A DNA stretch of 62,037 nucleotides, counting the filler, from Nitrospinae bacterium RIFCSPLOWO2_12_FULL_45_22 (GTDB lineage: Bacteria; 2-12-FULL-45-22): assembly GCA_001803565.1 (NCBI GenBank). It is 6 parts of 6 records of this genome, joined end to end, with 100 filler letters (N's around TTAATTAATTAA, not from the genome) between each part and the next. Parts side by side here need not be neighbours in the genome. Positions count along the whole stretch, not along the records: positions 1 to 25,109 come from MHDQ01000157.1; 5 more parts are not named here. One strand, given 5' to 3'. This document shows, one piece after another, positions 1,189 to 18,354 of this stretch; within the stretch, counting starts at the first letter, position 1; each line of letters starts with the position of its first letter. The notes under the pieces were generated by a model that made no database searches, was not told the DNA's origin, and worked only from the letters and a program-made list of their open reading frames with translations. The translations under genes were made by a program, and so were the position numbers.

Positions 1189-2428
1189 AGCGGTTATTAA
1201 AATTGGCAATAACTTTGTTATATAAGAGGATTTCTTGATCGGCAACTTTTGACCATTGGAAATTCTTTGCCCAGGCCATCCCATTTTGCCCCAGCCGGAA
1301 ATTTAATTCTTTGTCGGATAAGAGCAGGTCCAGCTTTTCGGCTAAGCTTCCACCATCCCCGACTGGTACAAGGAAACCAGCTTTATTGTCAGGTATAGTG
1401 AAAGAAAGCCCACCCACGTTAGATGCAACGATAGGAGTCCCACATGCCATAGCTTCTAAAGCAACCATCCCGAAAGACTCATACCGGGAAGGGATAGCTA
1501 AGACATCCGCTGCAGAATAATAATAAGTTAAGACCTCTTGCCTCTGGCCAGGCAAGAAGGAGACTTTCGTAGATATATCAAGTTTTCTTACCAGGGCCTT
1601 TATCCGCTGCAGTTCCTGGTTATCTTCGCTATCAGAATTATCACTGCCGCCTATTATAATAAGTTTTAACCCCGGTGTACTGCGCAGAATAGATATGGCC
1701 TTTACTAAGGTTTCCAGGCCTTTTATAGGATCAATCCTACCAACAAAAAGGACTATTTTTGCTTCATTTAGGCCCAGGAAGGCCCTGGCCTTATGTTTAG
1801 GTATTGGTCGGAAAATAGACGGGTTAACGCCGCATGGGATAACTTCTACCTTATCCGGGACAGCCTCATAAAACTTTATCATATCACTCTTGCCTTGCTG
1901 AGTGGCCGCTTCCAACTGGTCAACATGGCTCATAAGGACCTTCTCCAGCCTGAGGCGTAAAGGGTGCTCTCTATTTCCACCATTATCCATAGCCATATTC
2001 TTCAGGTAACCCAGGGTATGGAACCTTTGAATTACCGGGACTTCCCAATCCTTTTGCAGCTCTTTCGCCACCCCCCCAGAGAGCCAATAATGGGCATGCA
2101 AAAGATCGTATCTGATCCTTTCTTTTCTGGCAAATTCTTTTACCTGGTTGATAAATTCCGGTAAAAAATACCAGAGCAGATTCTTATTGTATGGCTGCGA
2201 TAGCCCCGCCTTAATGTGTATCACCCGTGCTTTTGACCCGAAAGAAACTACCTGGGGCAGATCATGTCTCTGGAGCCGGGTAAAGATATCTACCATAATC
2301 TCTCGGCGGCCCAATTCGTTAGCCAGCTCTTTTATATAGACATTCATACCGCCTGTATCCTGGCCCCCTAAAGGGGCTAAGGGACAGCTATGGACACTTA
2401 TCATTGCCACCCGGTTGAGGCCTACCAT
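1145..2428 (-). CDS. GT4 glycosyltransferase, MshA-like
   Basis: HSCPLAPLGGQDTGGMNVY, HYWLSG, FVGRIDPIKG, ESFGMVALEAMACG motifs. Confidence 0.85.
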   Translation of the reverse strand: MVGLNRVAMISVHSCPLAPLGGQDTGGMNVYIKELANELGRREIMVDIFTRLQRHDLPQVVSFGSKARVIHIKAGLSQPYNKNLLWYFLPEFINQVKEFARKERIRYDLLHAHYWLSGGVAKELQKDWEVPVIQRFHTLGYLKNMAMDNGGNREHPLRLRLEKVLMSHVDQLEAATQQGKSDMIKFYEAVPDKVEVIPCGVNPSIFRPIPKHKARAFLGLNEAKIVLFVGRIDPIKGLETLVKAISILRSTPGLKLIIIGGSDNSDSEDNQELQRIKALVRKLDISTKVSFLPGQRQEVLTYYYSAADVLAIPSRYESFGMVALEAMACGTPIVASNVGGLSFTIPDNKAGFLVPVGDGGSLAEKLDLLLSDKELNFRLGQNGMAWAKNFQWSKVADQEILLYNKVIANFNNRYGKNRENTGYFRSS

Positions 2429-3780: not shown

Positions 3781-4365
3781 TTATCTTCTGGGGAGAAATA
3801 TGACTCCCTCATGTCCTTCTTCAATAGGACTCTGTCGGTAAAAAGGTATCCCACATATTCTGCTATATTTTATCACCTGGAATCGTTTAAACCCAGCTTT
3901 CTCTATGCCGCATTGAGAAGGGATATTTTCGCGCAGGACAAAGATCAAAGCCCGGGTATAGCCTTTCTCTTTACCATATTGACAAACATAGGTCAAGATA
4001 TAGGGATAAAGGTTCTTACCCCGGTAGTCTGGTAAAGTAAACGCATCATAGAGATAAAACTCTTCATGCTTAACTTTAATAACCTTATCAATCTCTCCTA
4101 CTTCTGCCTCGGAGAAGGCGACCCAACAATAGGCTGCTATGTGAGATTGGTGTACCGCTATCCAGATCATCTCTCCCCGGCCAAACCGGGATTGGCAAAT
4201 CAATTCATCGGCTATCTCTAATAAATTGAAGCAAGGCGATTCAGAAATATTTCTTAATTGATATACCTGAACATCGAGCTTTGGTTTTATAAGAGGCATA
4301 TCCCCAGAAAGGGGAAAGGCGTATAGATAGAGGCAGTTCGCAGAAAATAACCTCTTGAGTTTCAT
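3781..4365 (-). CDS. GNAT family acetyltransferase
   Basis: FTLPDYRGKNL acetyl-CoA-binding motif A; NIPS..GIEKAGF. Confidence 0.75.
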   Translation of the reverse strand: MKLKRLFSANCLYLYAFPLSGDMPLIKPKLDVQVYQLRNISESPCFNLLEIADELICQSRFGRGEMIWIAVHQSHIAAYCWVAFSEAEVGEIDKVIKVKHEEFYLYDAFTLPDYRGKNLYPYILTYVCQYGKEKGYTRALIFVLRENIPSQCGIEKAGFKRFQVIKYSRICGIPFYRQSPIEEGHEGVIFLPRR

Positions 4366-4596
4366 GATCTTTGGGTAAAAACTACAAAGGCACTAAAACA
4401 CAAAGAAAAATATCATGGGTAACAGTTCACAGGGGTCAGGGATCAGTGGTTAGGCAAGCTTTTCTCGGGCTATGAGTCCTTCGCACAATCTCTAAAGATC
4501 GATAACTATTCAAAAATTAAAGTCTTTTCCTGAACCCCGTGAACTGCATTACTATTGACTCTTTTGTGCCTTAGTGCCTTTATGGTTATAACTATT

Positions 4597-5397
4597 TTAA
4601 GTTGTTTCTTTTTTCACCCGGTCCTGCACATAGCGGGAGCGGACCAGGGACCATTGGGAACTCATACGGACAAAATATTGCATCACCCCTCTAGCCTTAG
4701 GATAAATAGTGAAGGGATAGATCCGGTTAGGGTCAATATTATCTACCGCAAATACCCCGATGCGTTGCACAGATAAATAATCCTGAAGCCGGGCAATCCA
4801 GCGCTCCTGGAGCCTTAAGGGGATACCCAAACTCTCCTGGAAGGCAGGTATCACAATAGCATAATCGTGAGTACTACCTTTCTTCCTGCGTAATTCAACC
4901 AATCTTTTAGCCCTCTCTTCCGCCTTTTCATCACATTTGACCTCCAGGTTAACAAGAAAACCCTTTCCTTCCTGCTCAAAATAAAGGTCTGCATCAGTGC
5001 TTTCTCCTGGCGAATAACCCTTTTCTTGCAGGAGGTGGGTGATAGCCATCTTAATATAATCCCTTGCCTCTTGTTCATCAGTGAAAGTACCCTGGGAACG
5101 AGTAGGGAGCAGATTTAGTTTGAGGGGTGCGGCAGGTGGAGGTGCGGGCCTCTTTTCCTTTTCCATTCTCCCTTCACAATAAAACAGATCGGAGTGCTCG
5201 ATCTCTTTATCATCAACAAATTTAACCCTGAGCAATAGTTTGATCCCCCCGGGGTAGTGCTGCTTTTCCAAAATATCCATTCCCTTTACTATAAAATTCT
5301 CAGCTAAGGGTAGTGTGATGAAGATTCCTTTTTGGACAAAGCTTTTATTAATGTCTCGAACAGTTACCCTTTTATCGGCATCTTCAACTGTTGTCAT
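4597..5397 (-). CDS. Hypothetical protein, last gene of ACDS-like cluster; C-terminal domain possibly restriction-endonuclease-like fold; paralog of 7467..8012
   Basis: RBS GGAGG; LQEKGY..DADLYF..NLEVK..DYAIVIP pattern. Confidence 0.7.
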   Translation of the reverse strand: MTTVEDADKRVTVRDINKSFVQKGIFITLPLAENFIVKGMDILEKQHYPGGIKLLLRVKFVDDKEIEHSDLFYCEGRMEKEKRPAPPPAAPLKLNLLPTRSQGTFTDEQEARDYIKMAITHLLQEKGYSPGESTDADLYFEQEGKGFLVNLEVKCDEKAEERAKRLVELRRKKGSTHDYAIVIPAFQESLGIPLRLQERWIARLQDYLSVQRIGVFAVDNIDPNRIYPFTIYPKARGVMQYFVRMSSQWSLVRSRYVQDRVKKETT

Positions 5398-5422
5398 AAT
5401 GGATTATTCCTCCCTTCCTCGT

Positions 5423-5905
5423 CTATCGGACCAATTCCAGGGCCCCAAAGGGACACCTCATCGCACATGCCCTGCAGTATTCTGGTGGGTCAGCCTTTCT
5501 CTTGCAACGGTATGGATTAACCACATGAATAATACCATCAATTACCTGAAGAACTGACACGCTTTCAGTAAAGGCGGGCATTTCACCTCTGGGCCGGACG
5601 CGGCTCCTTCTCCCCAGGCTGCAAACCATAATACAGTCACCGCATCCCACACATTTTTCTTGCTTAATAAGGTGGCCACTTTCTGCTATATCTGCTTCCT
5701 CTAGCTCTTCGCCAAAATATTCCTTCAGCAGTTCCATAGAACTGCTAAACTCTTCTTTTTGTAAATCCGGACAGTCCGCCAGGGTCTTTTCTCGGCTGAT
5801 GAGTTCAAAGGCAAAGGCCAAACAGGTCTCACAACCACATGCCTTACAGTCTGTACACGGGAGCAATTGATATATTTGTAGAGGATTAATTCTCTCCTGA
5901 GTCAT
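5423..5905 (-). CDS. Fe-S protein: CFeSP/RnfB-type N-terminal [4Fe-4S] domain plus ferredoxin domain (FwdG-like)
   Basis: LPCTDCKACGCETC...CP, then CVGCGDCIMVC and CRACAMRCP. Confidence 0.85.
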   Translation of the reverse strand: MTQERINPLQIYQLLPCTDCKACGCETCLAFAFELISREKTLADCPDLQKEEFSSSMELLKEYFGEELEEADIAESGHLIKQEKCVGCGDCIMVCSLGRRSRVRPRGEMPAFTESVSVLQVIDGIIHVVNPYRCKRKADPPEYCRACAMRCPFGALELVR

Positions 5906-6243
5906 GCTTCCACCACTTCTGCTATGACTTCTATTCGTTTAAAATTAGGTAATTGTGCCTTTACGGGATCATATTCCGTCAATTTATTGATATAAGAACT
6001 CACTGGCACGAAACCAACCCCTGGGGGGCAGTTGGCATCTGCCTTTACCTTCATTACTATGGCACCCATAGAATCACTAAGCCTGATCATATCACCTTCC
6101 GATATAGCCAGTGTCTCTAAATCAGTTGGTGCCATACTTATCTGGCTTGACAGCTCCTGGTAATTAGCTTCACTACCCTCTGTTTGCCTTATTGCCCATT
6201 GGTAAGCATCCCGGTAAGTGACAATCACCAGTTTGATTTTCAT
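5902..6243 (-). CDS. Molybdopterin dinucleotide-binding subunit, FwdD/FmdD-like
   Basis: 113 aa, MAPTDLETLAISEGD..GVGFVP..PNFK; ATGA overlaps with both neighbours. Confidence 0.8.
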   Translation of the reverse strand: MKIKLVIVTYRDAYQWAIRQTEGSEANYQELSSQISMAPTDLETLAISEGDMIRLSDSMGAIVMKVKADANCPPGVGFVPVSSYINKLTEYDPVKAQLPNFKRIEVIAEVVEA

Positions 6244-7460
6244 ACTCCCTCCAGCAGCCGGCTAATAATTTCTTCATCGCTAGGACGATCGGTCTCTTTT
6301 ATAGGACTTAAGGTCACCTCAGTCCCATCCATACGCACTACTCTCCCCCCAGCTTCTATGCCCGAGATAGCGCCCCCGAATACTACGGTAGAATGCATAC
6401 TCGTGGGGGTTATATATGGGTCAAGAGTTATCAGTGATATCCCCCGGTTCAAATTTTTTGCTAAGGAAGCAGGTAAGCTGGAGTATGGGTCTGTTCCTAC
6501 AATCAGGATACAATCAGCCTCCTGGTTGCGTACCTGTTCTAAGAAAGAAAACTGAGGACCATGAGATATGCCATTAGCAAAAGATATTTTGTTAACATGG
6601 CCGGTCTGCTGATATAATAAATGGTTCAAACCCCTCATATTAGTATGGCAGGCCATAGGAATGACTGCCAGGCCTATACCTAGAATGTTCTTTATGGTCT
6701 CAATCAGTTGCTGGAAGAGAGAAAAATCTCCATCTAAAGCATAGGTTAACCCTAAACCCACGAATATAATCGGAAACTGGGACTTTTTTAGGAGCTCCAC
6801 GAAGGCCCGGGCATCTTCTCTTCCTGAGTCCTCTTTTATGACCGTCAAAATGGAGATTATAAAATCTCTATCCTCACCAGGCAACAGTCTAAAGGCATGT
6901 CTACAGCGCCGGCTAAGCTCGGTATCCCTTACATCAACACAACTAAGCCCGGCGGGTTTAGCCCGCTCAAAGGGATAATAAGCAAACCGAGATATGTGTC
7001 TTGGGTGAGAGTGGTAAGGATTGGAACCCCAATAGACGAGCAAATCAGCCTCTTTTAGCTGGGGAAAAGAGCAAGAGGGTAAAGTTCCCGTAAGGATATT
7101 CTCTACTACCGTGCCCTGACAGAAAGAGGAGCAGTCATCTATTGTGGCTCCCAGGGTACGGGAAAGTTCAATAGCCCTGGCCTGGGCTTCCAGGGTAGAA
7201 TTATCCAGGCCAAAGATAAGGGGTTTTTTTGCCTGTCGGAGCAATTGGGTGGCGGTATCAAGGGCTTCTGTTAAGTCTCCTCTCTCTCCCTTTACCAGGC
7301 AGGGTGGATTACGTCTTTCGTTTATATTATGGGCATAAATAAAAGCTGCCCCTTTCCTGCAGGCATTTTCTACCCGGGTGATAACATCTCCTTCCTGCTC
7401 AACTCCAATATCATCACATAGACAGCTACAACCGGTACAAACAAGATTTTTATAGGACAT
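6240..7460 (-). CDS. Formylmethanofuran dehydrogenase subunit B-like Mo/W-pterin protein (divergent active site)
   Basis: CTGCSCLCDD...NACRKG Fe-S motif, SSFCQG metal-ligand Cys, WGSNPYHSHPRH, GIEAGG..RMDG. Confidence 0.88.
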   Translation of the reverse strand: MSYKNLVCTGCSCLCDDIGVEQEGDVITRVENACRKGAAFIYAHNINERRNPPCLVKGERGDLTEALDTATQLLRQAKKPLIFGLDNSTLEAQARAIELSRTLGATIDDCSSFCQGTVVENILTGTLPSCSFPQLKEADLLVYWGSNPYHSHPRHISRFAYYPFERAKPAGLSCVDVRDTELSRRCRHAFRLLPGEDRDFIISILTVIKEDSGREDARAFVELLKKSQFPIIFVGLGLTYALDGDFSLFQQLIETIKNILGIGLAVIPMACHTNMRGLNHLLYQQTGHVNKISFANGISHGPQFSFLEQVRNQEADCILIVGTDPYSSLPASLAKNLNRGISLITLDPYITPTSMHSTVVFGGAISGIEAGGRVVRMDGTEVTLSPIKETDRPSDEEIISRLLEGV

Positions 7461-7466
7461 AGCACC

Positions 7467-8012
7467 TTAATATTCTTCCTCTTCCCAAAGCTCCTTGGAA
7501 AGCTGCATAGCCAAAACACCATCCAGGGATTGCTTTCCTAATGCAAAATACTCTTTGCATGTCTTATCTAAAGGTTCACCTACCAGACACCAGACATATT
7601 CTTCATCTGGGTTAGCAAACCAAACCATAAACTTGTTTCTCTTGATCTCAAAATACTTCCAACCTTTCTCGGTCCGAAAGAATTCCAACATCAAGAATTC
7701 GTTAACCGGCGGTACTACAATCGTATAGTCAATCTTATCCCCCCGGACTGATCTGATAGCGGCTAACTTTGTTAGCCCTTCCAGGGCCACATCAAAGTGT
7801 TGACACCCTATCCCGACAATCTCGTAAGTCTTATCGCCCTCGACCCTTTTGGCATGAAAATCTGGTTTAGCAAAACCGATATAGGTTTCTGGAAGGATTT
7901 CATAACCAACATCCTGTAAGAATTGCTTGGTCCAACCCACTATTTCTTCCACCGGGAAATACCATTCCCTAAAGTCCCCTTCTTTAACCCTATCAGGCCT
8001 ATCCTTTGCCAT
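7467..8012 (-). CDS. Hypothetical protein, paralog of the C-terminal domain of 4597..5397
   Basis: FLQDVGY..KPDFHAK..DYTIVVPP; lies in the cluster with short spacers. Confidence 0.7.
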   Translation of the reverse strand: MAKDRPDRVKEGDFREWYFPVEEIVGWTKQFLQDVGYEILPETYIGFAKPDFHAKRVEGDKTYEIVGIGCQHFDVALEGLTKLAAIRSVRGDKIDYTIVVPPVNEFLMLEFFRTEKGWKYFEIKRNKFMVWFANPDEEYVWCLVGEPLDKTCKEYFALGKQSLDGVLAMQLSKELWEEEEY

Positions 8013-8179
8013 ATCCCATCAACCCCTTCTATGCTCAGTTGTGATCGTTTACCCATCTAACCGTTCTCTGGCCACTAAGACCCAAAGACGCCAAGGGAGC
8101 GTAAAACTCAAAGCTAAAAGTGCAAAGCTAAGGAATAATTACCTTAGCTTTGCCCTTTACACTTTACGTTTTGAGTCTC

Positions 8180-8647
8180 TTATAACGCTTTTATCAACTG
8201 TTCAAGGTTTTGTTGATACTGTTTTAATGAAGCATCGCCTAAAGAGTAATTAGCTTCCTTTATATACACATTACCTAAGGCAACAGTCTCAGCACCCTTG
8301 ACTCCCGAAGTTAGCCCCCGCGCAACTTTGGGACTATAGCCTAAAAATATAAGCAATTCCGGCTTCTCAGTCGTGATGGGTTCTTTCCATTCTGGTCCTC
8401 GGATAAAATCAACTATTTCGGCAGCATACTTTTTTGCTACCTTTTCCACTCCCCGCTCTTTCAAGCCCTTGGCGGTATTGGCCGTAGCTGCTACCGGCAA
8501 TTTTAGCTTCTTAGCGATCTCAGCGGCATAATCCAGTAATGACTTACCATCGAAATTGAGTTCATTACACAACGCCCCGGTCAGGAGTAAGGCCCTCTTT
8601 TTGCTTTTAAGGCAGGTAGCCAATTCAGACGGTCGTTTAGCGCTCAT
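8180..8647 (-). CDS. cdhB: ACDS epsilon subunit (CdhB)-like protein
   Basis: Follows cdhA; KRALLLTG, PVAATA, LLIFLG, ANYSL patterns; RBS GGAGG. Confidence 0.75.
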   Translation of the reverse strand: MSAKRPSELATCLKSKKRALLLTGALCNELNFDGKSLLDYAAEIAKKLKLPVAATANTAKGLKERGVEKVAKKYAAEIVDFIRGPEWKEPITTEKPELLIFLGYSPKVARGLTSGVKGAETVALGNVYIKEANYSLGDASLKQYQQNLEQLIKAL

Positions 8648-8784
8648 ATTTCCTCCCCCTTTAGCTATTCATTTAAATTAATCCGGATACATGTTTTCGC
8701 GGATATTCGCAGAATTTCCGGGCTTGGGGGTCAGGGCTCGGGAAACGGCTGGCTCCTGATCTCTGACCCCTGACAGCCATATGC

Positions 8785-11313
8785 TCAGCTCTTCTTCTCC
8801 TTGACTCCTATCTCATAAGAAGTCTTATAGTTCCTGATCTCTGGATCGGGGAACATCCTGGGAACTCTGGTGGGATAGACCCCTCCCATACAACTAAACT
8901 CATTCTGCATGGTCTCCATATCTACCAGTCGTCCATCGGGATGCTTAGCCCGCTTTAAGTTTAGCCGCTCTACTTCCCAGCCATGCTTGTCTGCTAGCTC
9001 CCTAAGCATCTTGGCCTTATAACGTACCGGGAGTTCCCATGAGGAACGGACAAAGAGAGGCCAATCATCTGGCCACTCACCAAAGGCTGCCAGAGAAAAC
9101 TCTACATAGGTCTCCAACCCAATTAAGCGAAAATCCCTAATAGCTACTGGCCGCTGGCACATGATGGTTACAGCTGTAACCGCCTCTTCGCGGGTCTCTA
9201 CCGGGATAATCATATGCTTAGGTGCTGGTTCAACGGGTCGCTTTTTCCTGGTCCAGCTATCGTAATACCACCACCGCTTCCAGTCCCATTTATTTCCGGG
9301 CAAAAAGCGATGCCAGTCAAAGGCTGACTCTGGACCAACTACTACTGGGCAACCACCCCTGGCCCAGGCTGCTACAATAGGATACATCCTATCTGGCAGC
9401 GCACCCCACACCAACAAAGGAGGTGAGACAAGGTTACCATATATATCCGCCGTCTCAGCAAAGTTACCATAATGAGAAGCGCCTGCACCCGTCCGGGGCC
9501 ATTTCATAGCCTGATCCAAAATATGAACACAGGCAGCACAATCTCCAGTGTTGATAAGATTCCTTAGATTAGCCTCGGCGCCAAACTCGTCAAAGATATA
9601 TTTCTTGGTCTTTTCATTAAAGTGACGGGCTACCTCTCCAGCGGCACAGCCAGCGACAAAGGTAATAAAATTACGCGCGGTCAATTCATAAGCTATCCAG
9701 CCAAGGTCTTCTTCATGCTTGGCATCACCGCACCCTAAAAGGTGACAAATACCTGGAGTATTACCCCACATGGAGCTAAAGGCCCAGGAGGAGGTTTCTA
9801 CCCTTGGTAAAGGCCCCCGACCCGGCCGGAGCTTAAACTTATCCCCCGGTGCTCGTTTCTCCATGGAGGCTACGATTAAGTCCAACAACGGGATATTTTC
9901 TGGGCAGATTTTGACACAGGCCCCACATCCAAAACACCCCTTCTCTACTTCCGCCAGGGCCTTAATACCCTCCTTAGCCACCTGCTGGACTGCCTTACTC
10001 AACAGAAGGCTATTGGGGCAGTTACTGAAGCAAAGATCACAATCTTCCCGGCATTTCTTGGCCTCGGCCTTGGCCTTCTCTTCAGATAGCCGATAATCTC
10101 CTTTCCGTTTGACTTGCTGGAGAACCTTGAGGGCTACCTCCGCTGCCTTCTCCGGCAACCTTATCCAGGCCCCTGGAGCACCAGCCACTAAATCCTTCAC
10201 AATATCATCCACAAAGCTATCAGTCCGATCCGGCAACCCGATATTCTTATCCCGGCTGACCCATATAACCCGGGTCCCTACCCGTTTGGTATCCTCCAGA
10301 ATATCCAGATTCATACAAGAACTGCCCCCTACCAACACATCAGATATACCGTAGCGTAATATCTTCCTGGCCTTGGTCATAGGGGCCAATGGGCGGACCC
10401 TCTCATAAAAACGGGCCAGATCATCTCCTGCTGGTCCAATACCGCATACCTCAACCTTTTCGGTCAGCCCTTTCTCCTTCAGTTGATTAGCTACCAGGTA
10501 AGCCAGGAGGAAGGTGTCCCCCATAAAAGTAATCACTGGCTTTCCGGGCTCTACATTCCCCAGACCGCCTACTACGTTTACCTCTGGCCAGTCAATCATC
10601 TCTGATACCTCATGGTCAGAGGCGTTGGTCAGGCCAAAAAGGCTCATCTTTATTAACTCGATAACATCTTTTCCGATCATGAGCATGGAGCCGGCATGAA
10701 AAACCATCCCCTCCAGCTCAATGGCATCGGTACCAGTAAAGCTAGCAGAGGAGAGTTTAACTAGTTGGGCTTCTGCATAAGCCAGGGCCCTATCCAAATC
10801 AGCCAGGTTCTGTCCACCCATGGGTATGCAGGTAAAAAGGCCAATGTGGCTTAGGTCTGAGGCATCATGATGCGCACCCCAGGAAACCTCTTTCTCTCTA
10901 CCGAACACCTTAATAGCATAGTCCAATAGCTCTCGCGAATGGACCATCTGGGTCGAACAACCCCGACATGCCTTGCGGAGACTGAGGCGGGCCTGGTACC
11001 CCTCGAATTCTAATCCACAGACTCCTTTACCAGAGCTGAGGTTACATGGCCCTAAGGGGCAATCGGTACAGGTCTCTACGGTATTGCAATATAAGGGGGT
11101 ATACCTATCTAAAAGGTGACTATCCCACTCAGAAACATCAGCCTGATCCGTAAAAGGGAATATCCGCGTATCAAACTGTTGGAATCGGTTCTCCATCCAA
11201 TCATTCTCAACTGCCCAGAGGACTATATCCTCTACCCCCCGAATATCCCGACAGACCTTAGTAATATCTACTTCACTACTACCCAGAACAGTCTTTGTCT
11301 TTTTATCTCCCAT
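8785..11313 (-). CDS. cdhA: Archaeal-type CO dehydrogenase alpha subunit (CdhA)-like protein with remodelled C-cluster
   Basis: WDSHLLDRYTP, CxxCxxGPC...CG B-cluster, two ferredoxin-type clusters (CREDCDLCFSNCP, CFGCGACVKICP), PGRGP, LGC, AGC, GDC, WGA, EPAPKH, ELP. Confidence 0.9.
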   Translation of the reverse strand: MGDKKTKTVLGSSEVDITKVCRDIRGVEDIVLWAVENDWMENRFQQFDTRIFPFTDQADVSEWDSHLLDRYTPLYCNTVETCTDCPLGPCNLSSGKGVCGLEFEGYQARLSLRKACRGCSTQMVHSRELLDYAIKVFGREKEVSWGAHHDASDLSHIGLFTCIPMGGQNLADLDRALAYAEAQLVKLSSASFTGTDAIELEGMVFHAGSMLMIGKDVIELIKMSLFGLTNASDHEVSEMIDWPEVNVVGGLGNVEPGKPVITFMGDTFLLAYLVANQLKEKGLTEKVEVCGIGPAGDDLARFYERVRPLAPMTKARKILRYGISDVLVGGSSCMNLDILEDTKRVGTRVIWVSRDKNIGLPDRTDSFVDDIVKDLVAGAPGAWIRLPEKAAEVALKVLQQVKRKGDYRLSEEKAKAEAKKCREDCDLCFSNCPNSLLLSKAVQQVAKEGIKALAEVEKGCFGCGACVKICPENIPLLDLIVASMEKRAPGDKFKLRPGRGPLPRVETSSWAFSSMWGNTPGICHLLGCGDAKHEEDLGWIAYELTARNFITFVAGCAAGEVARHFNEKTKKYIFDEFGAEANLRNLINTGDCAACVHILDQAMKWPRTGAGASHYGNFAETADIYGNLVSPPLLVWGALPDRMYPIVAAWARGGCPVVVGPESAFDWHRFLPGNKWDWKRWWYYDSWTRKKRPVEPAPKHMIIPVETREEAVTAVTIMCQRPVAIRDFRLIGLETYVEFSLAAFGEWPDDWPLFVRSSWELPVRYKAKMLRELADKHGWEVERLNLKRAKHPDGRLVDMETMQNEFSCMGGVYPTRVPRMFPDPEIRNYKTSYEIGVKEKKS

Positions 11314-11466
11314 TGGACCCCTCCTTCTCTTTTTCTCGTTAAGAATATAATTACCTTAGGTATTAGTATTATTCTGCTGTAGATAACCTCAGGGAAAGGA
11401 AAGAGTCAAATCCTGACCCTTTATTGGGCTCCAACCCAGCGAAGGCATTGGGTCAGAAATGGAGTT

Positions 11467-11691
11467 TTAGAAGAAATCCGCCTCAGCCATGCATTTAGGA
11501 CATACCTTGAGCTTGCGTTTGGCGGGCCTTAGGGTTGACATAGTAACATCGCCCTTTACCTTAGCACCCGGGGTTTGTTCCTCTAGCGTAACCTCCTTTT
11601 TGCAGATATCACACAAAGGGATCCCACATTCGTTACAATTAAACGCCATTTCATTTTTGTTACATACCTTACAGAGTGTTGCTTCAGCCAT
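11467..11691 (-). CDS. Small Cys-rich zinc-finger/metal-binding protein
   Basis: Four CxxC pairs in 74 aa; RBS GGAGGTG. Confidence 0.75.
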   Translation of the reverse strand: MAEATLCKVCNKNEMAFNCNECGIPLCDICKKEVTLEEQTPGAKVKGDVTMSTLRPAKRKLKVCPKCMAEADFF

Positions 11692-11716
11692 TTCTCACAC
11701 ACCTCCATTCAAATTT

Positions 11717-11833
11717 AGATTGCTTCGTCGAGTTCCCTCGCTTGCTCCCTCGTTTCACTCGGGACTTCGGCTCGGGACAAGCCTCGCAACGACATTGAGA
11801 GTCTTATCTTGTCTTTGCGAGCAAAGCAATCTC
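11717..11833. repeat. Palindromic intergenic repeat (GATTGCTTCGTCG...CCTCGCAACGAC...GTCTTTGCGAG...AGCAATCT)
   Basis: Self-complementary; related copy at 24621-24722. Confidence 0.8.
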
Positions 11834-11874
11834 AAAGTTGAAAATTCCCCTGCTATTAAATTATTCGCTACCTC

Positions 11875-14085
11875 TCATGATGAAGCAGCGGTAAACCTCT
11901 CTTCCAGGAGGGCCGTGGTCATGCCTTCCGGCCCAATAAAATAGATTCTACCCTTCCCTATTCTAGCTATCCTCCTCATTAACTCTGGGTCAGTTGATTC
12001 CTCATTGATACAAACACAAGAGATAGTTATACCTTTTTTTGCTGCCATAATTGCCTGCCGCAAGGCATATCTTTGGGGGGAGGGATGGGGTGCAGTTGCA
12101 TCACCATCAGAGATAAGGATCATCTGTTGACTGGCACGACCCCGGCGATGGCGACCGAATAACTGCGTAGCCTTCAAGATACCAAAGCCAATATTGGTAA
12201 AGGCATTTTCATGCAACTCCAGGTCTATTACTCGACGGCTCAACCTCTGAGGACTACCAGTGATATCCACCACTACATCAGCGAGGTTAGAAAAACCTAT
12301 TACCCCCACTCGGTCACCATATTGGGCAGCCGCTAACGAAAGGGCAATAGCACTCTCCTTGGCATGCCATAATTTCTCCAACTGCCGCATGGTCCCTGAT
12401 AAATCAACCACCAGAATGAAATCAATCTTGGCCCGGATATCTTTGGTGGTGACCATGATATCGTCTTTGGTCACCTCCTGTCTTCGATTTCTGATAGTCT
12501 CCCGGATCGTATCTTTGAAAGATACGTCTCGGTAGCGGTCCCCAAACCGAAAGCGTCTGGTGCCAACCTCCCGCCCTTCACCGGTACTTAGTTTCTTGCC
12601 GGTACTATGCTTACCATAACCATAAAGATAGCTGGCTTCTACCGTAGGGCTCAATCGCTCCAGGAGGAAGGTAACCCCGCGTCTACTGAGCTCCCAACCG
12701 GTGCTACCCCTCTCCAGTATCTTTTCCCGTTCCAGGTAGCTGATAGTTTCCTTAAGGGCAGCGGCTTCCATTTCCTGCTTCAACTTGGCTATCCGGGCAT
12801 CCCTCTTGCGCACCTCTTCAATCTCATACAGTAACTCATCCGTAATGAGGTCTCCTCCAAATCGCTCTGGGTAAAGCTCCCGGATACGGACCCTCATCTC
12901 CCTTACCAGTTGTGCCAGCTTAGATTCCGGGAATCGTTCTATCCTCTTCAAGAGTAGATCAAAGGCCCCGTACTTAAGAGGTTGTCTAAACTTATCTTCC
13001 CGCACAATCTCTTCCACCAGGGCAAGCATATCATCTTTGGAAAAGCTGATCTTTTCCTCCTCTACCAAAACACCTAAAGCCTTATCCAGTACCTCCTCAA
13101 TAATCTGATCTCTCTTGCCCGGGTTATCAGAATAGGGAGCCAATTGAAGCCGGTGAGGAAGAGTACAATAAGCCCCTGCCCGGATGACCTTGTCCTCATC
13201 TCCGTAATCTATTTCCTGGAGAGAGGATACTAATTCGCCATACCGGAGCATCCCCCGGGTACTTACACCCCGTTCTACTTCACTGTGAGTTCTGGTATCC
13301 CTGGTTATATCTATAGACTTATCAATGGTAACCTCTGATACCGGCACTTTATCCGGATATATCCGCTCTAGGTTGGATACTACCAACTGCCTCTCGTCCG
13401 TCCGATCCTCAACATAGTTCAGATAAATAGTATCAAAACATTCCAGTACTCCTAGGGGCAGAGTCTCTAATACCCGTTGGCTACCGGTAGCTATCACCAG
13501 GATGTCTAGCGCTATCCTCTCTTCATAAGCGCCAATGGTAATATTTCCACTCTCCAGGGCGAATAGGAGGGTATTCAATACCCTCTCTGGCATCCGGTCA
13601 ATCATATCAACCAGAAGGATGCCACGATTAGCCCGAAGGAGTTTACCAGGCATAAAGCTTTGCAAAGAATGGATACCATGGATTAAAGCGGCCTCGGGGT
13701 CAAAGGCGCCAATAAGGTCTTCAGGAACCAGATCCCCTCCGCCCTGTATCCTTTTCACACGCCCTACCCCCGGTAAAGTCTGTTTTTTATGACCATTCTC
13801 TTGCACCCTAGCGTCTAAGCACCAGGGGCAGGAAGGGTTTTGCGGTGAGCAGTTTAAAGGACAACCTTCAACTATTTCTATATCATCCAGAATAAGGCTA
13901 ATATTATTGGCTAAGGCTGTTTTACCACAGCCCGGGGGGCCAAGAATAAGTAAATGATGCCCACTAGAGAGGCTACTAAGGAATGCCTCTTTCACTGATT
14001 CCGGCATTTGGAATTGGTGAAACAGACGATTTCTTCCCTCCTCACATCCATAGATTAAATTATTAAGAAGTTCATCCCTAAGCAA
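11875..14085 (-). CDS. AAA+ (degenerate) fused to vWA domain, ChlD/MoxR-partner-like
   Basis: Walker A GPPGCGKT, altered Walker B LLVDM, MIDAS DLSGTM, TNIG, LISDG; start moved to TTG 14085 after GGAGG. Confidence 0.85.
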   Translation of the reverse strand: MLRDELLNNLIYGCEEGRNRLFHQFQMPESVKEAFLSSLSSGHHLLILGPPGCGKTALANNISLILDDIEIVEGCPLNCSPQNPSCPWCLDARVQENGHKKQTLPGVGRVKRIQGGGDLVPEDLIGAFDPEAALIHGIHSLQSFMPGKLLRANRGILLVDMIDRMPERVLNTLLFALESGNITIGAYEERIALDILVIATGSQRVLETLPLGVLECFDTIYLNYVEDRTDERQLVVSNLERIYPDKVPVSEVTIDKSIDITRDTRTHSEVERGVSTRGMLRYGELVSSLQEIDYGDEDKVIRAGAYCTLPHRLQLAPYSDNPGKRDQIIEEVLDKALGVLVEEEKISFSKDDMLALVEEIVREDKFRQPLKYGAFDLLLKRIERFPESKLAQLVREMRVRIRELYPERFGGDLITDELLYEIEEVRKRDARIAKLKQEMEAAALKETISYLEREKILERGSTGWELSRRGVTFLLERLSPTVEASYLYGYGKHSTGKKLSTGEGREVGTRRFRFGDRYRDVSFKDTIRETIRNRRQEVTKDDIMVTTKDIRAKIDFILVVDLSGTMRQLEKLWHAKESAIALSLAAAQYGDRVGVIGFSNLADVVVDITGSPQRLSRRVIDLELHENAFTNIGFGILKATQLFGRHRRGRASQQMILISDGDATAPHPSPQRYALRQAIMAAKKGITISCVCINEESTDPELMRRIARIGKGRIYFIGPEGMTTALLEERFTAASS

Positions 14086-14124
14086 AATATCCTCCGCAAA
14101 AAAGGGTTTATAAGCTAACCAAGA

Positions 14125-14154
14125 ATTATAGGCGGCGTCATTGGTCAATGGCAA
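14125..14154 (-). promoter_or_regulatory. Possible internal sigma70 promoter
   Basis: TTGCCA-N18-TATAAT upstream of the AAA-vWA gene. Confidence 0.4.
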
Positions 14155-14202
14155 ATGCAAGGCTACAACGATTTAACCTAATGACTAATGACGGTCACTC
14201 TA

Positions 14203-14423
14203 GTAACTGTTCAGCCACGAAGTAACACGAAGGAATTCTATTAGAGACTAAGAGATTAGGAGACTTAGGCAGAGGATTCTAGGGGCTAAGGGTTCTAGCG
14301 ATTCTACCCTTGAATCCCAGACCCCTATAAAGAGAGATTATAGTCTCCCACTCTCTATAAATCTCTTAGTCTTAGTCTCAGATACTTGGGAAAACTTAGC
14401 GTCCCTGGTGGCTGATTAATTAC
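14203..14423. repeat. Nested palindromic MITE-like element
   Basis: Ends GTAACTGTTCAGCCAC / GTGGCTGATTAATTAC enclosing GAGACTAAGAGATT / AATCTCTTAGTC arms. Confidence 0.65.
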
Positions 14424-14446
14424 AAAAATTAAAATTGATGCAGGGT

Positions 14447-14477
14447 GAGAAAGGGAGGAACAAGCCCTCCCTTTCTC
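14447..14477 (-). terminator. Strong hairpin right after the cdhC-like gene (terminator or mRNA stabiliser)
   Basis: GAGAAAGGGAGG-N7-CCTCCCTTTCTC perfect 12-bp stem; no immediate U-tract. Confidence 0.55.
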
Positions 14478-14483
14478 TGCATA

Positions 14484-15887
14484 TTATTTGGGAATTTCCC
14501 TGGTCTCATCTGGCCAGTCGTGCCCAGGTAAAGGGATCTTTACGGGGGCTGGTTTACCATCCTTCCAACGCTTCTCTACCACCGGGTGTTTTTTTTCCCG
14601 GAGGAAATTCTCTAAGTCCTTAGGAGTGATACAATCCTCCTCGGTAGCGATCTTATCGTAGACTTCTTCGGGAATGGCATCGGCAATCTCTACCTTCAGG
14701 TCTTTGGGCATCCACACTATCCGGTTCCAACCACCATCTCCCTGGAGGAACTTGGGTGCCTTCGTGCCATATATAGATATCCCTTTAAAGCCATGATTCT
14801 GTACCCCTCCGCTCATTAATCCCGCAATCTTAGAGAAGGGTAATCCGATGGGGGTTTGCCCCATATAGCGCCTTATTGCAATTCCTATCCCATCAACCTG
14901 AGGGATATAGAAGCTTACCGCCTCGAATCACCCTCAGTTAGTGGTGACATATTTGATGCTACTATGCAGATGAAAGATCTTGTGCCTATGGTCTGATCTC
15001 TCATAAATGGCATCATCTACCCCTGTGAACCGACCTGCTATGGGATCAATGGTCTCCCCTTTAGGGAGTTCAAAGATATAGCCATGGGGGTCTATCGCAT
15101 GAATGGCCTTGCAGGTATAAAAGCTTAGAACCCCACAGTAGGGGACGATTGCTGGGGTGATGATACAGGCATGGTTGGGGGCAATCATCTTGCAGAGGGT
15201 GCAGCCATAGAACAGGTCTACATCCTCATCTGCAATAGCCGCATGCTTGGCCATCAGGGCCTCCCATTTCGGCTTAGTCTCTTCCAATATTGACTCTATA
15301 GTCTTCACCCCACCGATCTCGGGAGTACCCAATACCCATTTTACTTCTACCGCCTCAACAATCGGGGCTGAGGTAAGGACACTTGCCCTTATAGACTGGG
15401 ACAGCTTTTTAAAACTCAGCCTGGGGGCTACTTCCTTACTTATCCTTGTCCAGATGGTATCCCGGGCGCCGATCATACCGACACCTTCCATAAACATCAA
15501 CCCCATAAACATACCCCGGGCGGCAAACTCCTCATGATCCTCTGTTAGCTCCGGTCCCCAGAGCTTGGCATGCAAAGAGAAGGGAAGAGAAGTTTCCGGT
15601 GGTATCTCATCCAGTTCCGGGCCAATTACCTCTACCCGGCCATCAACTATCTCATTCGGATCGTTAACTACCTCAGCATAGAGAAAGCTCTTATAATTAT
15701 GCTTAGGGCCGCCCAGTTCCGCATGCCAATAGCCTTTTCGGATTTCTCCGATATACCTGGGGCCAATCCCTACATCCTCCAGTCCATCCCACAATTTATC
15801 CAAGTCTGTCTCTAGCTGGTAAACTTTCCCTGGCGGCAACTTTGTCTTGTACCAGGGCTTAAGCTCGGTTTTCACTTCCGTAGCCAT
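14484..15887 (-). CDS. cdhC: Archaeal-type acetyl-CoA synthase (CdhC/ACDS beta)-like protein, 467 aa, predicted selenoprotein with U318-G319-U320
   Basis: Track ORFs 14934..15887 and 14484..14864 are in one frame; read-through gives YVTTN-TGA-G-TGA-FEAVSFYIPQVDGIGIAIRRYMGQTPIGLPFSKIAG, matching PMTSCGCFE..PxG..F..LAG; Fe4S4 ligands FYGCTLC..PNHAC..CG intact. Confidence 0.92.
14882..14912 (-). promoter_or_regulatory. Bacterial SECIS-like hairpin
   Basis: mRNA UUCU-A-UAUCCC-UCA-[GGU]-UGA-U-GGGAUA-GGAA; G-starting apical loop 29 and 35 nt downstream of the two UGA codons. Confidence 0.75.
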
Positions 15888-16036
15888 AATTAAAACCCTC
15901 CTTTCATCCTAGAATTTCCGATCATCAGCTCTATATATCCCTATTATAGCGTGCTATCACCTCCTTTTCTCCTGCTATAAAATACTCCTTCTGCTGTCAG
16001 CATCCAGGGTATTACCTTAAATAATCTCTCCCTCTA

Positions 16037-16828
16037 TTAACGAGTGGCTCGCTCGCTGATCTTTTCACAAACCTGCACCACGGCTATAGAAGCGGGAGAG
16101 TCCTCTGGTAGTTCAATGATAGGCTTACCTAAGGCATCAGCCAGGGCTATCTGGGGATCATATGGGACATAAGCCGTTATTTCAAGGCCATTTTCCTGTA
16201 CCATACGTTCTAGCCCGGGCCTGGTTTCATCGGTAACCTTGTTTGCTATCAACATAACCTCAGAAAAATTGACCACTAATTCTTTAGCCAGATCCTTCAC
16301 CCTCTTAGCGGTCAAAAGTCCATTCCAGGTGGCATCACTAACCGCTATCATCAAGTCAACATCTCGGGTAGTACGACGGCTAAGATGCTCCAGTCCAGCC
16401 TCACAATCAATCACAGTAAAGTCATAACTATTAGCCTTGGCATCTATTACCTGGCGCAGGATATTATTAACCGGGCAGTAACACCCTTCCCCTTCTGGAC
16501 GCCCCATAACGAGGAGATCAATATTGTTATCCCCTTCTTCGACTATCTCGTGCAAAGCCGTTTGAAAAGCCCCTCCTTTATTAGCCGCCTCTGGGCTACG
16601 GGCCGGGGCATGCATTATGGTCTCCCGGATATCACCCACACTCTTTCTCACCGTCATACCCAGAGCATGAGGGAGATTAGAGTCGGGATCGGCATCAATA
16701 GCCAATACATATCCTTTCCTGGACAAACACCTAATCAATAGAGCGGATAAGCCAGTTTTACCAACTCCACCTTTTCCAGAAACAGCTATAGTAAATCCCT
16801 TATTAACCAAGCTACCAGAAAACTCCAT
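16037..16828 (-). CDS. cooC: CooC/AcsF nickel-insertion ATPase
   Basis: GKGGVGKT, DADPDSNL, GEGCYCP, DCEAGLEHLSR. Confidence 0.92.
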   Translation of the reverse strand: MEFSGSLVNKGFTIAVSGKGGVGKTGLSALLIRCLSRKGYVLAIDADPDSNLPHALGMTVRKSVGDIRETIMHAPARSPEAANKGGAFQTALHEIVEEGDNNIDLLVMGRPEGEGCYCPVNNILRQVIDAKANSYDFTVIDCEAGLEHLSRRTTRDVDLMIAVSDATWNGLLTAKRVKDLAKELVVNFSEVMLIANKVTDETRPGLERMVQENGLEITAYVPYDPQIALADALGKPIIELPEDSPASIAVVQVCEKISERATR

Positions 16829-16829
16829 A

Positions 16830-17870
16830 CTAGTTCGCCTCCGGCAATAATCCCTTCACCATCTCCTCAATAAGACTTATGGGATCATCATAATACTTTG
16901 ACTCAGGAGAAGGTTTTATCCTACTCCCCAGAGCAGATATAGCCATTTTTCTAATACCTTCTACCTCAGCCTTTTTGCTTCCATTCAGTAAGGCAAGGGT
17001 CTGGACTTTTTCATAGAGAGATAGGCCGGCCCTAACGCTCGCTCCTTGATCAAGCTCCTTACCCCAGGGTTCTTCCCTGGTAGCCCTCACTAGTTTAACA
17101 ATAGCATCCACAATCTTTCCCGGGAGTTCCACCCCATCAAATTTTAGGCCAAATTTCATCAATATGTCTCGCTCTCGTTCTGGTGTCTCGGGATAGCCCA
17201 TCTTAATCACATCAAACCGATCCAGGAGTACATCGGAAAGCTCTTCTACGCCGGCATGTTCCCTTGGGTTCATGGTAGCAATCATGATAAAATTTGCTGG
17301 ATAATCAACATCATACGGACCAATGGTAGCGCTCCCCTCTTCCAGTACCTGGAGTAAGGCATTCTGTAACTTTTCCGGTACCCGGTTCAACTCATCAAAG
17401 AACACTACCCCTCGATTACCTTTGAGTAGTTTTCCTGGGGTAAAGGCCCGATAATCCTGGGGACCATACTTGAATGCCTGGGTAGGATCAATGTCGCCCA
17501 GGAGATCTTCGGCCGTCAGGTCTGGAGACCCCTGGATCCGGACAAACCTCTTTACACCTGGCACTTCCTCACCCTCTATCTTCTCCCCTTTAGTTAGTTT
17601 CAACCTACACATAGGGCAAACCGGGTTCCCCGGCTCGCAGTGATAAAGGCAGCCCTTTACAGACATCAATGCGGGTAAGGTTGATGCCACATGTTTCGTA
17701 AGGGTAGTCTTGCCGATACCCGGTGGCCCTTCTATTAAAATATGATGGCCGGCCAGGATAGAGGCCAAAATTTTCTCCTTGGCTTCCTCCTGACCTACAA
17801 TAATATCTAATGGGTCCTTCTTCTTCTGAACCGCACTAAGAATAGCCTCCTTCATTCCTTCAATCAGCAT
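16830..17870 (-). CDS. AAA+ ATPase, ChlI/MoxR-like
   Basis: GPPGIGKT, RIQGSPDLT, FFDELNR, ATMNP, LLDRF; CLYHCEPGNPVCPMC insert. Confidence 0.88.
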   Translation of the reverse strand: MLIEGMKEAILSAVQKKKDPLDIIVGQEEAKEKILASILAGHHILIEGPPGIGKTTLTKHVASTLPALMSVKGCLYHCEPGNPVCPMCRLKLTKGEKIEGEEVPGVKRFVRIQGSPDLTAEDLLGDIDPTQAFKYGPQDYRAFTPGKLLKGNRGVVFFDELNRVPEKLQNALLQVLEEGSATIGPYDVDYPANFIMIATMNPREHAGVEELSDVLLDRFDVIKMGYPETPERERDILMKFGLKFDGVELPGKIVDAIVKLVRATREEPWGKELDQGASVRAGLSLYEKVQTLALLNGSKKAEVEGIRKMAISALGSRIKPSPESKYYDDPISLIEEMVKGLLPEAN

Positions 17871-17949
17871 GATTCTCCTCGCTCCTAAAAATCAATTGAT
17901 TAAAACTTTCCATAACTAAAACTAATCTCTCCTCATAAAACCTATCTAT

Positions 17950-18159
17950 TTAGCTGTGCTTGACAACTCCTTCCTTACTTAATACCCGGTAAACCAACAT
18001 CTTAACTTTCCGTTCCTCCTGCGCATCCATTTCCCGGCCACCGGTCTTAAATACCACCTCTATCTTATCCCCAACCTCACTTATACTTGCTAGTGTCCGG
18101 CGGGGGACGGCCTCTTTTATTGCCTGGCGCAATTCTTCAAACTCATCTGCCATGCTCAT
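17950..18159 (-). CDS. Small hypothetical protein, first gene of ACDS-like cluster
   Basis: RBS GGGGAGGA; 69 aa; directly downstream of promoter. Confidence 0.65.
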   Translation of the reverse strand: MSMADEFEELRQAIKEAVPRRTLASISEVGDKIEVVFKTGGREMDAQEERKVKMLVYRVLSKEGVVKHS

Positions 18160-18216
18160 TCCTCCCCTTAAAGATTCCTACTATAATAATTAAAGAAATT
18201 TCCAGAAGGTTTTTCC

Positions 18217-18234
18217 ATACTGAACGATTAGTAT
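18217..18234. promoter_or_regulatory. Imperfect palindrome, candidate repressor operator
   Basis: ATACTGAACGATTAGTAT (14/18 self-complementary) just downstream of the -10 box. Confidence 0.5.
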
Positions 18235-18236
18235 CC

Positions 18237-18265: not shown

Positions 18266-18354
18266 CCCCAAAATTTTATTTTGCAGTTCTGAAAATTAAA
18301 AAATCTTGTAACTGTTTAGCCACAATAAGATGGAACACAAATTACACGAATATG

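Follow-up and report, generated by a model that had tools for sequence, protein, structure and literature searches.

What does a subunit of carbon monoxide dehydrogenase (CODH) do once the ligands of its catalytic cluster have been exchanged? The question is raised by an open reading frame (ORF) resembling CdhA, the alpha subunit of the CODH/acetyl-CoA synthase (ACS) complex, at positions 8785..11313 on the minus strand of a 62,037-nucleotide stretch of the genome of Nitrospinae bacterium RIFCSPLOWO2_12_FULL_45_22 (GCA_001803565.1). This whole stretch is called the window, and all positions are counted along it. A preliminary description, made from the sequence alone, had read the ORF as a CdhA homolog with a rebuilt C-cluster and without D-cluster ligands, in an intact frame and under selection for a different metal site rather than in decay. 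We lean toward the reading that it encodes the alpha-type subunit of a second nickel enzyme, a paralogous one that resembles acetyl-CoA decarbonylase/synthase and would not be an ordinary CODH; its re-ligated C-site would carry out its chemistry together with the A-cluster of a neighboring subunit.

The ORF consists of 842 uninterrupted codons, from an ATG start to a TGA stop; as expected the frame is intact, and it lies on the minus strand, the plus-strand frame across the same positions being riddled with stops. It matches the NCBIfam cdhA model TIGR00314 over residues 56-785 (E 2.6e-139, 465 bits, short of the equivalog cut-off of 781 bits), and Pfam assigns it to the Prismane/CODH family with a 2x[4Fe-4S] insert. 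Among solved structures, the strong phmmer matches are CdhA chains only (8riu_A, 4e-114; 9c0q_A, 9e-100; 3cf4_A, 7e-92). An AlphaFold2 model computed from a 30-sequence alignment is confident (mean predicted local distance difference test score, pLDDT, 89.2; predicted template modeling score, pTM, 0.91), and it superposes on CdhA structures with template modeling (TM) scores of 0.81–0.84 when normalized by the query and 0.89–0.93 by the target (8riu_D, 0.84/0.93). For 3cf4_A of Methanosarcina barkeri, the structure that the preliminary description had named for comparison, the values are 0.81 and 0.89. The ORF product is thus a full-length CdhA homolog with the CdhA fold. With the canonical proteins (M. 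barkeri 3CF4, M. thermophila 9C0Q-T, Ca. Ethanoperedens 8RIU) it shares the whole fold, the B-, E-, and F-cluster motifs, four C-cluster Cys, and epsilon and beta (ACS) partners. It differs from them in its low identity (25–30%), in the absence of a D-cluster, and in the replacement of the pendant-iron ligands and acid-base residues.

These differences are precise. In the phmmer alignment the D-cluster site C-D/E-x-C-C-x-C appears as VETCTDC, the first Cys being replaced by Val and the third by Thr, and C-x2-C-x4-C...C remains. The type I motif Cys-X-X-Cys-Cys, by which the main passages of a survey of Ni-CODHs define the D-cluster of clade A (PMC6344411), therefore reads V-E-T-C-T in the window protein. 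The B-cluster Cys are kept (C82, C85, C90, C99), as are those of the E- and F-clusters (C421/425/428/432 and C460/463/466/470). At the C-site, Gln122 aligns under the first His of C-x-x-H-x-A-H, replacing the acid-base His; G-D266-T aligns under G-H-N, replacing the His ligand by Asp; G-I-G293-P294 aligns under G-(I/L)-C-C, replacing Cys-Cys by Gly-Pro; and Arg642 aligns under the Lys of W-G-A-x-S-Q-K, replacing the acid-base Lys. Cys333, Cys528, Cys556, and Cys592 align under conserved C-cluster Cys. Of the canonical ligand set (one His and five Cys) only these four Cys are present, both pendant-iron ligands being replaced, and Gln122 and Arg642 stand for the canonical acid-base His and Lys. 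The preliminary description had given the same picture (both D-cluster Cys lost with the B-cluster kept, the four exchanges at the C-site, the four retained Cys), and the alignment to CdhA structures confirms it, with no canonical His, Cys, or Lys at the exchanged positions.

Homologs were collected with a word-index search over 5.8 billion proteins, giving 111 matches, and with an exhaustive search of 50%-identity representatives, giving 172 at E ≤ 0.001 and 55 at E ≤ 1e-30. The MAFFT alignment of the 111 matches comprises 98 noncanonical rows, 12 canonical ones, and a single odd one (P0107). The replacements are near-invariant among the noncanonical rows (Q122 in 90, D266 in 93, G293 in 96, R642 in 90), and so are the retained Cys (C333 in 94, C528 in all 98, C556 in 94, C592 in 95); position 294 is more variable, with Pro in 42, Ala in 30, and Ser in 17. 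The 12 canonical rows all have the His ligand, the Cys-Cys pair, and the Lys, and 11 have the acid-base His, the remaining one showing a gap. In the 30-sequence alignment, whose mean column identity is 55%, Gln122, Asp266, Gly293, and Arg642 are invariant. Being so conserved among homologs, the replacement residues are themselves under selection, and the site is not decaying. A score below the cdhA equivalog cut-off is what one might also see in a decaying pseudogene or an annotation artifact; this explanation is refuted by the intact 842-codon frame, the confident model, the 111 homologs with conserved replacements, and a synteny conserved across phyla (see following), and we give it practically no credence.

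A maximum-likelihood tree, built quickly from the 61 rows that remained of 151 after thinning at 62% identity, places all rows with Gln, Asp, and Arg at the three positions in one clade of 29 (Shimodaira–Hasegawa-like approximate likelihood ratio test, SH-aLRT, 99). This clade is nested in a larger one of 39 CdhA-like proteins, all devoid of the His and of the Cys-Cys pair, which is separate from the canonical rows. Archaeal records (L038 and L042 of Ca. Alkanophaga, L047, L049-L052, and other records of ANME-1/Methanophagales) hold a related CdhA-like type with Gln, Asn, Gly-Ala, and Glu at the corresponding positions, often adjoining a CdhC gene with Cys-Gly-Cys. Noncanonical Cdh-type proteins are hence not confined to bacteria.

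The ligand pattern itself is not new. Table 2 of Inoue et al. (2019, Front Microbiol 9:3353; PMC6344411) lists within clade A (Cdh-type) a structural group A-4 with no D-cluster, with D, P, C, C, C, C as C-cluster residues, with Q and R as acid-base residues, and with E/F-clusters present. The passages of that work on the group describe it as bacterial only, deeply branching, clustered with ACS genes, and without an assigned function. The window protein fits every column (D266, P294, C333/528/556/592, Q122, R642, the E/F Cys, no D-cluster), and a CdhC gene stands in its cluster at 14484-15887, so that by its signature it belongs to this already catalogued group. The A-4 passages treat a sequence class only and mention neither FwdB/D-like nor BchI/BchD-like partners, nor a microprotein, nor the unknown partners, nor an ACS with selenocysteine (Sec), all of which are described below. 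We found the A-4 label nowhere in the literature beyond this work, and no paper on the gene cluster, although the gene-context supplements of Inoue et al. may bear on its novelty. A 2026 survey, by the portion of its text that deals with sequence selection, retained only sequences with all five C-cluster Cys (PMC13240472), a filter that leaves group A-4 out; a 2026 study of gene contexts, in the parts concerned, handles clade A as a single block.

Eighty-five of the 98 noncanonical rows carry Gln122, Asp266, and Arg642 together and are here termed strict A-4 rows. Most of them (81 of 85) have one more Cys close to the Ni-ligand Cys592, at position 589, 595, or 596, as opposed to none of the 12 canonical rows. 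Cys595, the second Cys of GDCAAC, is the form that this family trait takes in the window, and it is the part that stands of an earlier suggestion of three new Cys sites: the two Cys of ACRGC have Cys counterparts in 8riu and 9c0q, and the Cys of VCGIG is found in 11 of the 12 canonical rows. Carboxylates are also gained at or near ligand positions: besides Asp266, there is Asp or Glu at 641 in 84 strict A-4 rows and Asp267 in 51. Such carboxylates could point to a hybrid-cluster-like Fe-S-O site reducing a small N- or O-oxide, for which the hybrid cluster protein and the CooS-V protein of clade D would be parallels. Another CODH group, D-1, copies the ligand set of that protein, as the pertinent passages of PMC6344411 state, but the pattern of the window differs from the set described there. 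Since the operon moreover holds an ACS, CooC, and an Fwd-like pair rather than stress genes, we consider such a function very improbable.

The second component of the system is the CdhC-like ACS beta subunit, encoded at 14484..15887 (minus strand). At first listing this gene appeared as two ORFs, and it is actually a single frame of 467 codons, two of them TGA. The alignment to CdhC of M. thermophila (9c0s_E) shows where these fall: with TGA read as Sec, ...T-T-N-TGA-GGG-TGA-F-E-A... aligns to T-S-C-G-C-F-E, so that TGA-GGG-TGA (14928..14936) would encode a putative Sec-Gly-Sec in place of the Cys-Gly-Cys that binds both A-cluster nickel ions. The gene keeps the [4Fe-4S] motif C-x2-C-x8-C-x9-C, and the Cys-Gly-Cys feature has its counterpart only if TGA stands for Sec.

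Among 46 CdhC genes compared at this junction in the genome loci, 43 have Cys-Gly-Cys, and the three that are the window's closest relatives (L002, L003, L032) have TGA-GGN-TGA. The second copy in the L032 genome (L078) shows an intermediate form, TGA-GGG-TGC, which recurs in L084, L090, and L099. In protein databases, 18 of 80 CdhC homologs end exactly at ...(T/S)-N before the motif, 23 match the Cys-Gly-Cys pattern, and 39 are left unclassified by it. Metagenome contigs, scanned for the pattern, contributed 24 stretches, of which at least 12 represent this gene (nine U-G-U, one of them identical to the window, and three U-G-C), the others being nine chance matches and three duplicates of a listed sequence. 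Contigs from all four of the runs examined, which belong to four studies, span the TGA-GGG-TGA site without any difference, and the frame downstream of the TGA pair is 72–76% identical to the window in relatives. Elsewhere in the window, as where the CdhA-like gene ends, TGA serves as an ordinary stop, and translating the window with TGA as Sec yields no other convincing read-through gene. SelB is found above cut-off in two related genomes with U-G-U (G001, G002) and not in a third (G003), a 1.4-Mb metagenome-assembled genome (MAG); a tRNA scan of the window found none.

A candidate hairpin resembling a Sec insertion sequence (SECIS), GAGGC-loop-GCUUC, starts 9 nt after the first TGA (14910..14924, minus strand). 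Its 5-bp stem, whose third pair is G-C, G-U, or A-U, reaches -5.3 to -6.9 kcal/mol in all 15 distinct Sec-type sequences, and -4 or lower in only 10 of 43 Cys-type ones, in a set of related sequences and a coding region. Taken over the 57 nt that follow the TGA pair, the minimum free energy fails to distinguish the two types (mean -16.1 for Sec-type vs -14.1 for Cys-type, sd 3.6); only the local 24-nt hairpin does. Rfam gives no match at the gathering threshold in the window and none at E ≤ 1 in 4000-18600, with neither a riboswitch nor a SECIS family. As a SECIS-like element the hairpin is suggestive only. Judging from these observations together, the CdhC site is probably a Sec-Gly-Sec A-cluster, and insertion of Sec at the first TGA codon, at least, is likely.

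Precedents exist for both aspects of this proposal. In the selenoprotein family tables of PMC13188914, the double-Sec UxxU family shows two Sec within four residues, and in the [NiFeSe] hydrogenases listed there Sec takes the place of a metal-binding Cys at a Ni site, as we propose for the window CdhC. A Sec-containing ACS beta subunit was not found in the literature: the terms "UGU," "CdhC," and "COG1614" are absent from the main text of two selenoproteome reviews, whose supplements may bear on the novelty. The only CODH/ACS entry in the portions of these reviews that list selenoproteins is the gamma subunit/HgcA (PMC13188914, PMC9312934).

Genes for the CdhA-like and CdhC-like subunits belong to a conserved 13-gene operon, 12 members of which are itemized here; between 17870 and 4597 all genes lie on the minus strand. 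It opens with a BchI/ChlI-like AAA+ ATPase (16830..17870, 346 aa), recognized by a family match and by the conservation of the cluster, and a CooC-type Ni-insertion ATPase (16037..16828, 263 aa), whose best match among solved structures is CooC1 3kje_A (1.3e-20) and whose Cys-x-Cys motif reads GEGCYC against GSQCYC. After the CdhC-like gene follow a BchD-like protein with AAA+ and VWA domains (11875..14160, 761 aa), recognized by family matches and synteny, and a 74-aa protein (11467..11691) with eight Cys in four C-x2-C pairs, which is B-box-like (PF00643, 25.3 bits against a cut-off of 24.1). This small ORF, between the BchD-like and the CdhA-like genes, is conserved in L001, L002, L003, L006, L009, and L032. 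A plus-strand ORF of 151 aa overlaps 11467-11691 and has no family match; one recurrent neighbor ORF family (family 9) was dropped as an antisense overlap, by its coordinates.

Downstream of the CdhA-like gene stands a CdhB-like epsilon subunit (8180..8647, 155 aa), which matches PF02552 and, below cut-off, TIGR00315 (E 2.9e-12), and which is conserved beside the CdhA-like gene. It is followed by a 181-aa protein (7467..8012), present in 22 loci, and an Fwd-like pair, comprising a FwdB-like pterin-fold subunit (6240..7460, 406 aa) and a FwdD-like subunit (5902..6243, 113 aa, family matches). The last two genes encode a 160-aa Fe-S protein (5423..5905), with a CdhE/RnfB-type N-terminal Fe-S domain (PF04060) and ferredoxin motifs (Fer4 families), and a 266-aa protein (4597..5397), present in 16 loci. 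Only Atlas models give a fold for the 181-aa protein, PD-(D/E)XK-like or DUF6834_C-like, and in such models the C-terminal half of the 266-aa protein resembles it. A sequence search of solved structures found nothing better than E 0.013 (2ph7) for the former and E 0.36 for the latter. Family scans found no corrinoid-protein gene (CdhD/CdhE) in the operon, the 160-aa protein matching the first ~50 CdhE residues only. Compared with the canonical acetyl-CoA decarbonylase/synthase, the operon thus lacks the gamma and delta corrinoid subunits and has the Fwd-like and AAA+/VWA partners in addition.

The same gene set, in the same or a rearranged order, was found by tblastn with the window proteins in records of Syntrophales, Syntrophaceae, Deltaproteobacteria, Thermodesulfobacteriota, Dehalococcoidia/Chloroflexota, and Spirochaetota. 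A locus scan with one genome per species gave 309 pattern matches and 106 confirmed relatives, of which the best 80 were kept and 77 loci returned. The synteny comparison uses the 71 loci with a long CdhA-like match, and its counts are lower bounds, as contig ends cut many loci. Among 41 loci of the Asp266 type, CdhC is found within the stretch fetched in 32, the FwdB-like gene in 25, and BchD/I-like genes in 24; for the 30 loci with Asn or Phe at 266, the corresponding numbers are 9, 3, and 0. Pairs of a MoxR/BchI-type AAA+ ATPase and a VWA protein are known in metalloenzyme maturation (CoxD/CoxE, NorQ/NorD, CbbQ/CbbO), and we know of none for Ni-CODH/ACS. The window pair resembles the CoxD/CoxE type in that its genes, for a BchI-like ATPase and an AAA+/VWA protein, adjoin those of a metalloenzyme; its target is suggested solely by the co-occurrence with CdhA-like genes of the Asp266 type.

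This distribution bears on whether the CdhA-like protein could be a noncatalytic scaffold or electron-transfer subunit, its four Cys holding a plain [4Fe-4S] cluster or nothing while the protein docks on, and covers, the ACS subunit. The conserved B-, E-, and F-clusters would suit such a role, and so would three proteins 57–59% identical to the window protein (P0010, P0019, L037) in which three of the four C-site Cys are gone (P0010 having SCDD and P0019 SCNS at these positions) and which yet keep the Gln, Asp, and Arg. The B-cluster Cys are also gone in P0010 and P0019, that region is absent from L037, and all three are still full length or nearly so. A scaffold, however, would have no need for Gln122, Asp266, Gly293, Asp/Glu641, and Arg642 to be fixed (90–96 of 98 rows), nor for an extra Cys in 81 of 85, and the dedicated AAA+/VWA pair co-occurs only with Asp266 types. 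We therefore judge this explanation distinctly unlikely.

The loci of the Dehalococcoidia type have some additional features. A short-chain dehydrogenase gene lies inside the cluster, between the 181-aa protein and CdhC, in L008, L015, L017, L018, L023, L026, and L027; in their vicinity, genes for a methylmalonyl-CoA-mutase-like protein, MeaB, and an aldehyde:ferredoxin oxidoreductase occur repeatedly; and the CdhC-CdhA pair is tandemly duplicated in many. The acyl-CoA genes near these loci may be lineage synteny, and we draw no functional inference from them. As for the distribution of the operon in the environment, the region 8180-15887 is near-identical (half or more of sampled words) in 20 runs of 17 studies labeled as groundwater, soil, or sediment metagenomes, with no RNA run among those listed; three of the 20 may be where the window sequence itself comes from.

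The FwdB-like subunit parallels the CdhA-like one in having lost key residues. It matches FwdB of the tungsten formylmethanofuran dehydrogenase (5t5i_B) over its full length (1.4e-58), keeps the [4Fe-4S] Cys and the W/Mo-ligand Cys, and scores 302 bits with TIGR03129, for which the cut-off is 328. C-H-G-P has become C-Q-G-T, and Ala stands where P-M-R-G-H has its Arg; the Cys/Sec-His-x-Pro ligand motif and the catalytic Arg of the TIGR03129 family are thus absent, the UHxP motif of subunit B being taken from a table of a selenoprotein review, by the columns that give family motifs (PMC13188914). The catalytic Arg is missing in all 24 family members from the loci, as it is in the window. The metal-ligand position is occupied by Cys in the subgroup to which the window belongs, by Ser in that of the Dehalococcoidia, and by other residues in more distant members. 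Likeness to the tungsten enzyme FwdB/FwdD (5T5I) lies in the [4Fe-4S] motif, the metal-ligand Cys, and a separate FwdD-like gene; unlike it, the window operon has neither FwdA nor FwdC. With the CdhA-like and FwdB-like proteins both altered, two modules that normally reduce CO2 lack their CO2-handling residues, whereas the A-cluster subunit, with TGA read as Sec, keeps every ligand. In distant subgroups (L046, L048, L059, L068, L072, L074, L076) an amidohydrolase of the FwdA family type (PF07969) adjoins the FwdB-like gene, and several of these PF07969-bearing clusters have no CdhC within the stretch fetched.

Do the genomes carrying this operon depend on it for CO2/CO chemistry? A canonical-type CODH/ACS set is also present in four of the five related genomes searched. 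In G001 and G002 the set lies on another contig and comprises a CooS that passes the cut-off, an ACS of the long AcsB type, and a full-length CdhE. G004 encodes CdhC and CdhE along with two CdhA that score above cut-off. In G005, CdhC and CdhE are accompanied by a partial but higher-scoring CdhA, matched with 548 bits across positions 386-761, a score below the cut-off for the whole protein. This bears on the possibility that the protein is a working CODH isoenzyme, in which the re-ligated site, with Asp instead of His, one Cys moved to a new position, and Arg instead of Lys, would still convert CO2 and CO into each other and pass the CO on to the ACS next to it, the operon being a second ordinary CODH/ACS. 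A CooC is indeed encoded nearby, as is an ACS beta subunit whose A-cluster ligands are complete (in the window, with TGA read as Sec), and the number of potential ligands is unchanged, with five Cys and one Asp. But replacing the equivalent Lys, His, and Cys in CODH-II strongly lowers activity (CODH-II mutant structures are present among the Protein Data Bank matches to the model), and here the acid-base residues and pendant-iron ligands are all replaced. The operon further has no CdhD/CdhE corrinoid protein, and the canonical-type set is already there in the four genomes. On the other side, the section of Inoue et al. on A-4 takes the link with ACS genes as a possible involvement in the Wood-Ljungdahl pathway (PMC6344411). 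All considered, a CODH isoenzyme seems unlikely to us.

In the reading that we favor, that of a second, paralogous nickel enzyme, the C-site would bind a specific re-ligated Fe-S cluster, possibly with Ni, held by five Cys and Asp266, so that the ligand count would be preserved with one Asp in place of the one His. Gln122, Asp/Glu641, and Arg642 would form the second sphere of this cluster, which would then be something other than a plain electron-transfer cubane, and the BchI/BchD-like chelatase-type motor would help to load it. As the acid-base His/Lys pair is gone, ordinary CO2/CO turnover is not expected, and the CdhA-like subunit would no longer perform the standard His/Lys-assisted interconversion. 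The A-cluster, complete and in one lineage apparently upgraded with selenium, suggests that the chemistry centers on the ACS-type subunit, for which the CdhA-like subunit may supply or remove a carbonyl-level ligand or electrons. The overall reaction could be a carbonylation or decarbonylation without an operon-encoded corrinoid protein. The idea of selection for a different metal site rather than decay, already put forward in the preliminary description, fits the invariant replacements, whose conservation in homologs had been named there as a check, the clade support, the extra Cys in 81 of 85 rows, and the conserved operon with maturation ATPases.

Several observations weigh against this reading, beyond the Wood-Ljungdahl suggestion just mentioned. 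The four retained Cys could hold merely a [4Fe-4S] cubane, and the reach of Cys595/589 and Asp266 to the cluster is judged by sequence position. The subunits of P0010, P0019, and L037, to go by their residues, cannot bind the cluster, which fits a structural role, and would keep the fold without it. CooC could serve the A-cluster alone, and the FwdB-like subunit may be a cofactor-less relic. The link between Asp266 and BchD rests on related sequences and not on independent events. Finally, in the 1.4-Mb MAG G003 there is a CooS above cut-off but a CdhE match of only 49 residues, and this is the one of the five genomes that is not counted as having a canonical-type set.

Elsewhere in the window, a 2-hydroxyacyl-CoA dehydratase D-component-like gene is followed by one for a fused BchI-BchD-like protein, a "putative cobaltochelatase" (TIGR02442, 718 bits with a cut-off of 779), at 56590-60101 on the plus strand. 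This protein is a second chelatase-type ATPase in the window, positionally unrelated to the Cdh-like operon. At 508-2428 (minus strand) a gene for an MshA-like glycosyltransferase adjoins one for a BshB/MshB-like deacetylase, a pair that suggests low-molecular-weight thiol synthesis. Genes for a lipopolysaccharide heptosyltransferase, MurJ, and an AmiA-like protein are also in the window and mark its organism as a bacterium. Its TrpB is 62–70% identical to that of four of the five related genomes and has no match in G002, values that are not diagnostic for taxonomy.

What is new here is the operon-level picture and the apparent Sec-Gly-Sec ACS partner: the A-4 variant is part of a conserved multisubunit system that occurs in records of Syntrophales, other Thermodesulfobacteriota, Dehalococcoidia, and Spirochaetota and that stands beside ordinary CODH/ACS. 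The annotation of A-4-type genes as CO dehydrogenase, or as evidence of Wood-Ljungdahl capacity, is probably wrong. A bolder proposal, which we offer tentatively and would not call likely, is that the operon encodes a new nickel-selenium enzyme, in which two selenolates would bridge the Ni-Ni A-cluster of the ACS type, with the re-ligated cluster of the CdhA-like subunit, which would not reduce CO2, and an Fwd-type pterin module put to a new use as its partners. It might catalyze a (de)carbonylation other than the corrinoid-dependent synthesis of acetyl-CoA from CO2, for example with another acyl-CoA or C1 donor, in subsurface anaerobes that keep their ordinary CODH/ACS. The Sec-Gly-Sec site by itself, if real, would mean that nature has exchanged sulfur for selenium at both of the positions that bridge nickel in the A-cluster, which is among the most thoroughly studied organometallic sites of enzymes. 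Such a site would provide a 77Se spectroscopic handle on that cluster, and its gene would represent a selenoprotein family that does not figure in the main texts of the two selenoproteome reviews.

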